NCBI GenBank assembly: GCA_964016885.1 | Contig: OZ024745.1 | Location: 42,532,001-42,596,000, forward strand | DNA: 64,000 nt | Direction: 5' to 3' | DNA from: Eledone cirrhosa | Lineage: Eukaryota | Shown here: piece by piece, positions 2,911 through 35,144 of the stretch | Position numbering within the stretch: the stretch's first letter is position 1 | Layout of the letters: each line of letters starts with the position of its first letter | The notes under the pieces: model-generated | The model's input: the letters and a program-made list of their open reading frames with translations, nothing else | Databases searched by the model: none | Told to the model about the DNA's origin: nothing | Made by a program: the position numbers and the translations under genes

Positions 2911-2924
2911 CAAAGACCAAAGGT

Positions 2925-3069
2925 CATTATTGAAAGTCTCCGGATTTCGTAAAGTACATATTTTTTGAAAATGTTATTTATTCATTATAAAAATTAAATG
3001 ATAGCATTCAATATGTAGGTGGGCCCCCTTCATCTTGGAACCAATATTTTTAGACCTAGTCCGCCACTG
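2925..3069. repeat. Partial copy of the terminus at 4935-5154, ending CCGCCACTG (possible hAT-like CAG(G/T)GGCGG end)
   Basis: Direct sequence match to 4935-5154 with an internal deletion. Confidence 0.55.
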
Positions 3070-3157: not shown

Positions 3158-3712
3158 ACGAAGTTCGATCCAGGTTGGTAGTAGGGTTCCCATTAAACCT
3201 TTTCGTTTTTTTTTTCTATGGATTGAAAAATAAAAACTGAAAAAAAGGTTACATGTACCTCTTGACAAGGATTGAACCAAAGGCCAGGATATCCAGCGTC
3301 TCTAGTACTTTCCACTTGGCCACAGAGACAACTACGAAAATCTTATGAAAATTCATACTTATAAACCTACTTTCAAAATTTTCAAAACAAAGTGTTATGG
3401 TGTCGTTCATGTCTTTCTTAATGTTATTGCTCCTACTTAAGGTCGACTCCTAAATTATTTGGGTGTTCCATAAACTACATCCTCATTTTGTTTCTCATCT
3501 ATCTAGACTACCTTTTAACCTGTAATCCACGTTTCATTTCTGTTCCAACTCATTTCTCCCCCACACTCTCTCTATATATATATGTGTGTATGTATGTAAA
3601 AGGTAAACAGAAATAACAACACAATCGCTACAGTATATGGAAGGGATATATTAGGTTAACGCTTGATATAGCAGGAAGAGGGTCTTAACGATTCGGACGC
3701 TAGTCCTTCACC
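3158..3712 (-). repeat. Partial copy of the hammerhead + Pol III cassette repeat
   Basis: Reverse complement of about 4215-4764. Confidence 0.85.
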
Positions 3713-3981: not shown

Positions 3982-4208
3982 GCGCGCGCAAGTGCACAAG
4001 TATAGCTCTTTTTACAAAACGGCTTTTTTCCATTTCAGGTAGACGCGCTCCAACATCCACTTTTCGAAAGAATAAATCATACACACAACGCCAGCACCAA
4101 CAGTTTTGTAAGAGATGTTAACATGAATGGACCTGTTATTTTTATCTAAAGACATTTTTTCCTATTCCAACCCGCCCGTCCCCTCAATCTATCTTATTTC
4201 TCATTCTT

Positions 4209-4244
4209 TCTTCCGATGAAGGACTAGCGTCCGAAACGTTAAGA
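4209..4244 (+). ncRNA. Minimal type I hammerhead-like motif (U4C variant)
   Basis: TCTT-CCGATGA-A-GGAC-TAGC-GTCC-GAAA-CG-TT-AAGA. Palindromic ACGT stem III. The copy near 33222-33256 (-) reads GTGATGA, so the consensus is probably CTGATGA. Confidence 0.65.
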
Positions 4245-4598
4245 CTCTCTTCCTGCTATATCAAGCGTTAACCTAATATATCCCTTCCATATACTGTAGC
4301 GATTGTGTTGTTATTTCTGTTTACCTTTTACATACATACACACATATATAGAGAGAGAGGGGGGGGGGGGAGAAATGAGGTGGAACAGAAATGAAACGTG
4401 GATTACAGGTTAAAATGTAGTATAGATAGATGAGAAACAAAACAAGGATGTAGTTTATGGAACACCCAAATAATTTAGGAGTCGACCTTAAGTAGGGGCA
4501 ATAACTTTAAGAAAGACATGAACGACACCATAACACTTTGTTTTGAAAATTTTGAAAGTAGGTTTATAAGTATGAATTTTCATAAGATTTTCGTAGTT

Positions 4599-4686
4599 GT
4601 CTCTGTGGCCTAGCGGTAGGTACTAGAGACGGTGGAGGTCCTGGCCTTGGGTTCAGTCCTTGTCAGGAGGGACGTCTAACCTTTTT
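4599..4686 (+). ncRNA. tRNA-like Pol III unit 1 (putative)
   Basis: A box TGGCCTAGCGG 4606-4616, B box GGTTCAGTCC 4650-4659, T5 terminator 4682-4686, TTTATAA 4563-4569. Confidence 0.65.
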
Positions 4687-4720
4687 AAGTCTTTATTTTA
4701 CAACCCATAGAAAAAAACTG

Positions 4721-4813
4721 AAAAGGTTTACTGGGAACCCTATTACCAACCAGGATCGAACTTCAGACAAGGATCATCACCGTCTATGATCCCTCCAACT
4801 AGGCCACCGAGAC
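4721..4813 (-). ncRNA. tRNA-like Pol III unit 2 (putative, diverged paralog of unit 1)
   Basis: Minus strand: A box TGGCCTAGTTGG, B box AGTTCGATCC, AAACCTTTT end, TTTATAA at 4843-4849. Confidence 0.6.
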
Positions 4814-5159
4814 AGCTACAAAAGTGGAATGGAAATTGATAATTATAAACCTACTTTCAAAATCAAAGTTAAAAAGATGTGGTGTTGTTCATGGCTTTCC
4901 TAGAGCTTTTAGTAATACTTAGGGTTGACTTCTGGTCATAATTGAAAGTCTCCGGATTTCGCAAAATACATAATATATTTTATTGGGGAAGGTAAGATAT
5001 ATTTCCGCAAAAATTTGATTGCACTGTTTTGTTTCCGATTATGTATTTTTCGAAAATGTTATTTATTCATTATAAAAATTAAATGTTAGCATACTATATG
5101 TAGGTGGACCCCCTTCACCTGGCAACCAATATTTTTAGACCCAGTCCGCCCCTGTGTAT

Positions 5160-5288
5160 ATATGTATAGTTCTTGTAGGACGTTTGAGCACTCGGTGCTC
5201 GCGCAGAGCAGAGTATATTATTATAGATAACGAGGAATCAGTAATGCATCAATGTGTTTTGATGCATACTGATTCCTCGTTATCTATC
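5160..5288. repeat. Short fold-back insert; family member at about 34945-35075 in opposite orientation
   Basis: ATAGATAACGAGGAATCAGTA-ATGCATCAA / TTGATGCAT-ACTGATTCCTCGTTATCTAT inverted repeat between TA-rich tracts. Confidence 0.65.
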
Positions 5289-5687: not shown

Positions 5688-5746
<59 letters not shown>

Positions 5747-5747
<1 letters not shown>

Positions 5748-6515
5748 TAGCGGCAGTACCCAGCGTTGCCTGGGTAGGTAAAATAATATCTGCTTTGGTG
5801 AAAAGGTATTGATCTTAGCGACTGCTTCTCGATAACTCATCTATGCCCACACACAGGCTATGAGGGGGAGGGTGGTGATGACCTCTATCACTGAGAAACG
5901 CGGGTGACTGATGAAGGGGCATGCTGGGGGAGGGTGTTTCGAATTTGAACGAAATCGGTTGAAAAATGTGGGAGCTAGAGCCGAAAAGGCGGAAATTTGA
6001 GCGAAAAGGTGGTATTTTCGAATATTTAAACGGCTGCCACGCCGTTCCTGAACAAAAAATCCAAAATGTAATGCCACTTTAAGACGTGAAATAATCATAT
6101 CTAGCGTAGTGTAAAATTTGAACAAAGTAGGTTGATTAATGTGGGAACTAGAGCCGAAAAAATGGAAATTGGAGTCTAAAAGTGGTATTTTTGAATATTT
6201 AAGTGGCTGCAACGCCGTCCTCGAACAACAAATACAAAATATAAAGTCATTACAGGATGTGCAATGATAAATTCTATTTTGCTTTAAAATTTGAACGAAA
6301 TCAGTGGCAAAATGTGGGAGCTAGAGCCAAAAATCTTATTTTTATCTGCAGAATGAGCCCGGAATAAAATTTTAAAAAAAAACGATACTCTGATATATAG
6401 AAAACACTCCCTATGAGCCTGTAAAGTTTCATGAAAATCGGTCGTCGTAAGATGTAGGCCCCTATAGGTAATACACAGACACACACACAGATACTTAATT
6501 TTATATATATACAGA
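5747..6515 (-). mobile_element. Non-autonomous Helitron
   Basis: Minus strand begins TC (6515) and ends with hairpin TACCCAG-GCAACG-CTGGGTA then CTAG (5750-5747). Inserted between A and T with no TSD. Internal degenerate tandem repeats. Confidence 0.85.
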
Positions 6516-32673: not shown

Positions 32674-32719
<46 letters not shown>

Positions 32720-32723
<4 letters not shown>

Positions 32724-33095
32724 GTTTCAGTTTTTTTCTATGGGTTGTAAAATAAAAACTGAAAAAGTTTACACGTCCCTCTTGACCAGGATTGAACCCA
32801 AGGGCAGGATCTCCACCGTCTCTAACACCTACCGCTACGCCACAGAGACAACTACGAACATCGTATAAAAATTCATACTTATAAACCGACTTTCAAAATT
32901 TTCAAAACAAAATGTGGTGGTGTCGTTCATGTCTTTCTTAAAGTTATTGCTCCTACTTAAGGTCTAATTCTGAATCATTTGGGTGTTCCATAAACTACAT
33001 CCCCGTTTTGTTTCGCATCTATCTAGACTACATTTTAGCCTGTAATCCATGTTTCATTTCTGTTCCACTTTATTCCGCCCCACCCCCCACCCCTC

Positions 33096-33130
<35 letters not shown>

Positions 33131-33410
33131 ATGTAAAAGGTTAACAGAATAACAACACAATCGGTACAGTATGTGGAAGGGATATATTAGGTTAATGCTT
33201 GATATAGCAGGAAGAGGGTCTTAACGTTTCGGACGCTAGTCCTTCATCACAAGAAAGAATGAGAAATAAGATAGATTGAGGGGACGGGTGGAATGGAATA
33301 GGAAAAAAATGTCTTTAGATAAAAATAACAGGTCCATTCATGTTGACATCTCTTGCAAAACTGTTGGTGCTGGTGTTTTGTGTATGATTTATTATTTAGA
33401 AAAGTGGATA
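32720..33410 (-). repeat. Third copy of the hammerhead + Pol III cassette repeat (unit 1 only)
   Basis: Reverse complement of about 4055-4730. A box TGGCGTAGCGG, B box GGTTCAATCC. Abuts (TA)n. Confidence 0.88.
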
Positions 33411-34837: not shown

Positions 34838-35144
34838 TATATTACGTATCTGGGGAACTTGCGAATCCAGCGTCAGGTTCGATCCACAAACAGATCGCAC
34901 CTCGAGCTGTTCACCGGAGAAACAATTGTAATACTTAATAAATTGTGTTCCGATGCATCACTGATTCTTCGTTTTCCATATTATTATACTCTGCTCCGAA
35001 GGAGCATAGAGTGCTCAACCGGCATACAGCCTATGGACGCATCCAAGCAACATTACTACAAATATATATATACAATATATTAATAAATGGAAACTATATT
35101 TATAAAACCATATTTATTTTATTATACATATTTCAAGGGCTACC

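Follow-up and report, generated by a model that had tools for sequence, protein, structure and literature searches.

Two described families of small RNAs that RNA polymerase III (Pol III) makes come closest to the locus reported here. The snaR genes of great apes form, according to the part of PMC3045588 on which we draw, a lineage-restricted Pol III family of ~30 genes in tandem arrays, in which the transcribed part diverges faster than its surroundings. The rodent 4.5SI and 4.5SH RNAs are Pol III products of 94-98 nt, and their genes, as described in the part of PMC7279448 cited here, combine A and B boxes with a needed TATA-like box at −31/−24 and with further upstream elements. In molluscs, tRNA-derived SINEs carry a tRNA-like head with A and B boxes (PMC4758252, in part).

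Here, we analyze two facing tRNA-like units in a 64,000-nucleotide stretch of the Eledone cirrhosa genome (GCA_964016885.1, contig OZ024745.1, positions 42,532,001 to 42,596,000 of the forward strand), hereafter the window. Our preferred reading, to which we assign a probability of about two in three, is that these units, which sit inside a nonautonomous hAT-type transposon, were captured from a host family of Pol III genes with few members. From internal A and B boxes and an upstream TATA-like block, they are predicted to give rise to RNAs of 90-105 nt.

The family resembles snaR in having clustered Pol III-type genes with a fast-changing transcribed part; however, snaR, as far as the cited account goes, has its origin in Alu/7SL and was multiplied by segmental duplication, whereas here the boxes are tRNA-like and the spread was by a DNA transposon. 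With the 4.5SI and 4.5SH genes it shares A and B boxes, a TATA-like upstream element and a clustered or tandem arrangement. By contrast, those genes are SINE-derived and conserved in rodents, their transcripts have been shown and the part of the source cited describes no transposon capture, while transcripts of the present family are predicted. By analogy, the units may work like snaR and 4.5S genes while belonging to neither family, and we claim no sequence kinship with snaR. Unlike molluscan SINEs, as the cited part of that source describes them, the units have no body or tail, their upstream DNA travels along, and transposon ends take the place of variable target duplications. Vault RNA genes (RF00006) have in common with the units an A box, a T-run end, a length of ~90 nt, clustering and a TATA-like box near −30; the vault matches of this genome are, however, a separate family without likeness to the units. 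The carrier shares with nonautonomous hAT elements short terminal inverted repeats, an 8-bp duplication, the lack of an ORF, thousands of copies and the capture of DNA between its ends, and differs from such elements with host DNA in that the cargo is a complete pair of Pol III units with upstream promoters and that the likely source family is still in the genome. We take such hAT elements to belong to the subgroup called Tip100-like.

Results

The initial annotation had described a mobile cassette with two convergent tRNA-like Pol III genes, and all the upstream blocks, boxes and ends that it named were found where it had placed them (Table 1). Both units begin with GTCTC and end in AACCTTTT, and both have the A box at +8 and the G of the B box at +53, which is the tRNA spacing (T8 to G53). 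The boxes of both units match the type-2 consensus given in the cited part of PMC7279448. The distance from the last block to GTCTC is the same in both units, as had been claimed, but is 29 rather than 30 nt; the units are 88 nt (unit 1) and 93 nt (unit 2) long. Transcription of unit 1 is predicted to start 3-4 nt upstream of GTCTC. The additional copies of unit 1 expected near 3200-3470 and 32730-32970 are also present.

The similarity between the two units is far above chance (E 1.6e-38), and the family majority sequences of units 1 and 2 are identical in 165 of 212 columns. Despite this 22% divergence, block 3 is identical in unit 1 and unit 2. The observation that blocks were kept while spacers diverged is borderline when drawn from these two units (P = 0.057 for the longest stretch of identity and P = 0.069 for the three longest; 20,000 permutations) and became significant once the host clusters described below were added.

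Table 1. Features of the cassette and its relatives in the window
Feature	Position	Strand	Basis or detail
Left-truncated nonautonomous hAT-type transposon copy with cargo	4350..5154	+	81-92% identity to genomic copies
Right terminal inverted repeat, 14 bp	5141..5154	.	matched to other copies' ends
Second transposon right-end segment, same orientation	2922..3069	+	sequence match
Unit 1	4599..4686	+	GTCTC start 4599; A box 4606-4616; B box 4650-4659; end motif 4678-4685; T run 4682-4686
Unit 2	4721..4813	-	GTCTC start 4813; A box 4806-4795; B box 4762-4753; end motif 4728-4721; T run 4724-4721
Unit 1 distal blocks 1 and 2	4480..4530 (4480-4494, 4511-4530)	+	in host clusters, weak constraint
Unit 1 block 3, TATA-like box at its end	4550..4569	+	probable upstream promoter element
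Hot spot of mutation in unit 1 (−18 to −8)	4581..4591	+	change counts, clusters and mobile copies
Unit 2 block 3 with TATA-like box	4843..4862	-	same sequence as block 3 of unit 1
Unit 2 distal blocks 2 and 1	4880..4930 (4899-4880, 4930-4916)	-	motif positions
Local duplicate in inverted orientation, comprising unit 1 (3329-3243), its upstream blocks and the 3' end of unit 2	3160..3710	-	92.6%
Further unit-1 copy, flank shared with 4055-4730	32718..33409	-	88.6% over 693 bp

The window also holds other repeats. A separate dispersed repeat (4055-4345, 3560-3710 and 33100-33409) contains a hairpin flanked by hammerhead-like core letters and has no Rfam match; we take this combination to be typical of the ends of Penelope-like elements. 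At 5223-5287 lies a near-perfect 65-bp inverted repeat, the left flank of which recurs at 34952-35028 and which scores weakly with miRNA models, and the ends of 5745-6500 are, we presume, those of something like a nonautonomous Helitron.

Queried with the DNA of the two units in turn, the 3.0-Gb genome (1,796 contigs) yielded 2,482 and 2,625 candidates; the window itself aside, the 40 top-ranking ones are 90-93% identical. Several lines of evidence identify the carrier. First, the right end is fixed at window position 5154 across copies. Second, although the window copy has no left end, left ends and 8-bp duplications are seen in other copies: both ends are found at 8 of 56 loci, of which seven are truly two-ended and one (L008) has a false left end, and the seven have the 14-bp terminal inverted repeat at both ends. 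Third, the 8-bp flanks match with at most one mismatch in six of the eight two-ended candidates, three of the six lying outside microsatellites; the remaining two are one with a false left end and one inside a microsatellite. An additional locus (L157) has an 8-bp target duplication. The carrier is a nonautonomous hAT-type DNA transposon, which confirms the mobility proposed in the initial annotation. The first 10 letters of its end are common to the hAT transposase elements of this genome (PF14291 and PF05699); at the 50 hAT loci checked, likeness to the carrier went no further than these letters, and six transposases used as queries found no transposase remnant in 348 other loci or in the window. 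No autonomous partner was thus found among these loci; a transposase may yet lie inside one of the long copies, the wider context of which was read in a minority. Several hAT families of the genome (L111-L125) have open frames of 870-909 codons and some near-identical copies, and may have been active recently.

In long copies, the left end is followed by a middle part and a right end, after which come one or more modules and another right end. Each module starts with segment B and a GA repeat and continues with unit 1, unit 2 in inverted orientation and segment C; modules are often in tandem. Block 3 has 2,803 exact matches genome-wide and is exact in 23 of 46 sampled units, which gives ~5,600 units; the left-end 18-mer has 532 exact matches and was exact in 12 of 22 sampled cases, giving ~1,000 ends. 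All 60 pattern-picked loci lie inside cassette sequence. Deletion forms without one unit or its promoter have also moved, with target duplications (L011, L043, L231). Metagenome and viral contigs, searched with one pattern each, gave no match.

Units with upstream blocks also occur head-to-tail, without transposon ends, at five places in the genome (C5:84.03, C4:22.91, C5:106.6, C5:112.51 and C5:112.62 Mb). The first of these has six head-to-tail units and no transposon end, its four 2-mismatch end matches all lying at least 16 kb away; in the C4 cluster, one 2-mismatch end-like match lies between units, inside a long ORF resembling a retroelement fragment. The clusters hold 24 profile matches, 19 of them near-complete, so that the family has at least this size. 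Members are 61-91% alike and are spread over two chromosomes; over a compared window that includes unlike flanks, unit 1 is 67-76% and unit 2 61-66% alike to them. The order of the cluster repeat (end of C, B, GA repeat, upstream blocks, unit) is the segment order of the cargo module, and the upstream DNA of the window units matches the clusters better than any of 300 shuffles. In a midpoint-rooted tree, unit 1 falls into one group with five members of the C4 cluster (98% ultrafast bootstrap), the placement of unit 2 has 41% support, and the two units are not sisters in the best tree. The transposon-free clusters are the likely source of the cargo, and it is the greater divergence and the absence of ends in the clusters that suggest capture in the direction from host to transposon.

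Of the 19 cluster members, 17 reach a T run by +105 and the other two have none within 105 nt. Several members have damaged boxes or lack this T run, so that some of the family are dead. In its spacer, each cluster repeat (for instance at L249, L317 and L318) contains another A/B-box-like motif, which is shorter and lacks upstream blocks; the 16 copies seen change at the background rate. Protocadherin-like genes were considered beside the clusters and rejected; the long ORFs there look by eye like retroelement fragments.

Other arrays were rejected as the source of the cargo. A strand excess of 213 in the RNA-core count, which had suggested a large uniform source array, was traced to a 55-bp minisatellite at C5:31.80 Mb that is built from part of unit 1 and is not an array of genes. 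Amplified copies of the transposon make up the arrays at C20:35.87 Mb and C1:441.19 Mb. Satellites seeded by the cassette are the 55-bp repeat (L399), the 1.12-kb repeat at C20:35.87 Mb (L240) and, at C13:34.45 Mb, matches spaced roughly 93 bp apart. In a tandem tRNA-Ser(TGA) array at C1:441.186-441.21 Mb (L351-L353), the 1.68-kb repeat has absorbed a truncated transposon copy with unit 1.

Changes in the clusters were counted on a tree of 17 members, two of the 19 being left out for missing upstream DNA. The 20-bp block 3 changes four times more slowly than background (0.35 per site, with 7 changes over its 20 sites; P = 0.0005 for any window), a figure to be read with a possible bias to intact block 3 in mind, as the clusters were first found via shared words, although the within-cluster neighbours came from the profile. 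The upstream background is 1.3-1.6 changes per site (1.32 at −124 to −50, 1.58 farther up). The region from −20 to +80 changes about twice as fast as background: −20 to −1 has 2.95 changes per site (59 observed, 27.6 expected) with a peak at −16 to −8, and +1 to +80 outside the boxes has 169 changes compared with 93.5 expected. Fixed box letters change less (1.83 vs 2.82 per site, P = 0.018); the last G of the A box accounts for 7 changes. The difference from the majority sequence is 2.1% in block 3, 9.9% in the upstream 95 bp, 12.4% farther up, 14.7% in the spacer and ~22% from −12 to +80 outside the boxes, A/T and G/C alike, and the hot spot is not a CpG effect. We read this pattern as selection for a working promoter. 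It upholds the upstream promoter element of the initial annotation in that the TATA-containing block and the box letters are constrained in the host clusters.

In tRNA genes, according to part of the account in PMC6130373, divergence is about fourfold in the 20 bases upstream, peaks 10-15 bases upstream and is strongest at active genes. In the tandem tRNA and vault sets of this genome, which are small in number, −20 to −1 is the most variable stretch in four of six (Asn, Ser-GCT, Ser-TGA and one vault type) and is more variable than farther upstream in five of six. The mutation pattern of the clusters suggests that their genes are or were actively transcribed. It is distinctly unlikely, in our view, that the clusters are instead a selfish tandem repeat or an old mobile relic with a tRNA-like head, making no useful RNA and keeping the block as a replication or binding signal or by gene conversion. 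Block 3 is near-identical across two chromosomes and the transposon while its neighbours are 61-91% alike; its place 30 nt from the start, the tRNA box spacing and the −16 to −8 peak all point to Pol III; and only about two dozen members were found. What such a repeat would explain is that the RNA part changes faster than background and has no shared fold, that copies are partly decayed, that the spacer has its shorter A/B-like motif and that units readily seed satellites.

In the dispersed mobile copies, block 3 differs at ~3.8%, which equals the A/T background and indicates no protection, and the boxes differ at 7.7-9.7% compared with 4.9-8.1% upstream (two pattern-picked samples). The excess conservation of blocks for which the initial annotation had proposed to look across mobile copies is not there: the blocks decay like the rest of the element. 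Because block 3 is unspared in mobile copies, protection by a bound factor does not explain its conservation in the clusters. At −18 to −12, 57 forms occur among 160 units, a difference of 10.5% per site where five control heptamers give 2.7-4.5%; the excess is found at A/T sites only, being 1.9-fold at −20 to −1 with none at G/C, unlike simple deamination. We infer that many mobile copies have been transcribed without selection.

These data bear on a further alternative, in which the Pol III pair has a function for the transposon and the TFIIIC-bound facing genes, acting as a chromatin barrier or through a decoy RNA, favoured the form with cargo. Cargo units do outnumber left ends (~5,600 against 532 exact, or ~1,000), modules are often in tandem and the hot spot of dispersed copies suggests transcription; however, deletion forms without a unit or promoter moved as well. 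The identity of block 3 in units that are 22% diverged would fit such a role, but is also inheritable from the host family, and the boxes and blocks decay neutrally in copies, although this is expected even if the pair were useful only to master copies. We regard this role as unlikely.

Neither ARAGORN nor Rfam, at gathering and E-value level, matched the units. A tRNA identity was rejected (no cloverleaf with an anticodon arm, no ARAGORN or Rfam call). As to a tRNA parent, the start of the unit equals tRNA-Asn genes over the first 11 letters, yet no parent, Asn by the 5' end or Ser by the A box, is assignable among the 16 sampled types (z at most 1.4). Among 1,161 RNA-core matches, 30 loci were read as candidates for a tRNA-derived SINE; all 30 lie in cassette sequence and none has a SINE body. 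Vault RNA was rejected on the lack of an RF00006 match on the units, the separate vault cluster of the genome and a closing stem without covariation, and the vault genes do not match the family profile. The initial annotation is borne out in describing a small-RNA-like family that is unannotated, without Rfam, ARAGORN or SINE identity and present outside the carrier as well. We found no support for its suggestion of vault/tRNA-Sec/EBER-type kinship, vault genes being a different family in this genome, or for PSE-like upstream blocks, as these do not resemble the DNA upstream of the genome's U6, vault or tRNA genes (34-292 of 300 shuffles score as high against three U6 upstream types; against U6, vault and tRNA-Asn, 14 of 300 in the best of 14 comparisons).

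It is very improbable that the two units are common tRNA pseudogenes, or heads of SINEs, that sit with incidental flanks in an ancient inverted duplication within a MITE. The tRNA-like boxes and their spacing, the Asn-like start and the nonsignificant block pattern of the two units alone would agree with such a reading; nevertheless, the units give no ARAGORN or Rfam call and have no parent among the 16 types, the 30 loci all lie in the cassette, units 1 and 2 are not sisters, and their flanks are common to the transposon-free family and constrained there. The clusters and their constraint largely refute this reading.

The genome has a vault RNA cluster at C3:221,183,987-221,251,257 (L320-L340), with 14 genes of two sequence types above the Rfam cut-off and two more just below, and single vault matches at C4:22,848,500 and C2:223,304,784. 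To our knowledge, vault RNAs are little described in protostomes, and our literature search found no paper on molluscan vault RNA. The U6 genes (L061-L080) have an octamer-like motif near −77 and a TATA near −30, and in some copies of the C19 U6 array an inserted repeat replaces the element upstream of the TATA. Dispersed tRNA-like genes (among L376-L391) have one common body and the anticodons GGC, GGT, GTC, GAC and AGC, and may be either a tRNA-derived repeat or an anticodon-switching family.

Consensus folding of 21 units with RNAalifold gave no shared structure, and of five correctly cut units, none has a clear folding advantage over its shuffles (z −1.62 to +1.61). Pairing reaches 81% in a 5' stem that spans about −3 to +35, and its covariation is weak, being equalled by 2 and 9 of 500 shuffles with relatedness uncontrolled. 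The 5' hairpin attributed to both units is the minimum-energy fold of window unit 1 but not of window unit 2. An acceptor-like closing stem has no covariation. The public sequencing runs listed as containing the stretch are three DNA-type runs of one study, and no RNA run is among them.

Discussion

We suggest that part of a host cluster, with one of its units inverted, ended up between a short transposon and a second right end, and that transposase would then have moved this part together with its promoters, which is impossible for a SINE. Selection would keep the host genes because they are transcribed, while constraining the RNA little apart from the promoter letters and perhaps one 5' stem. 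By analogy with snaR and 4.5S RNAs, we tentatively propose, at somewhat less than even odds, that the RNA acts through its shape and ends on a binding protein and not through a fixed sequence. The mobile copies would be unselected passengers, many of which may have fired for a time after insertion.

Our literature search, with repeat databases and most subscription papers outside its scope, found no description of such a family or of Pol III genes carried by such transposons. The boldest reading, which we think improbable, is that an undescribed, fast-changing family of Pol III small-RNA genes with an upstream element of its own was captured whole and that the hAT element uses the facing pair to stay open or to escape silencing, thereby seeding thousands of live Pol III promoters and local hot spots of mutation.

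Altogether, the clusters point to a candidate family of small-RNA genes that Rfam lacks, and supply its exact loci together with a putative element of its promoter. Capture by a DNA transposon would be a route by which Pol III genes are multiplied with their upstream promoters intact, unlike SINEs. Moreover, thousands of unselected copies of the same age may serve as a natural, selection-free gauge of transcription-linked mutation near the Pol III start.
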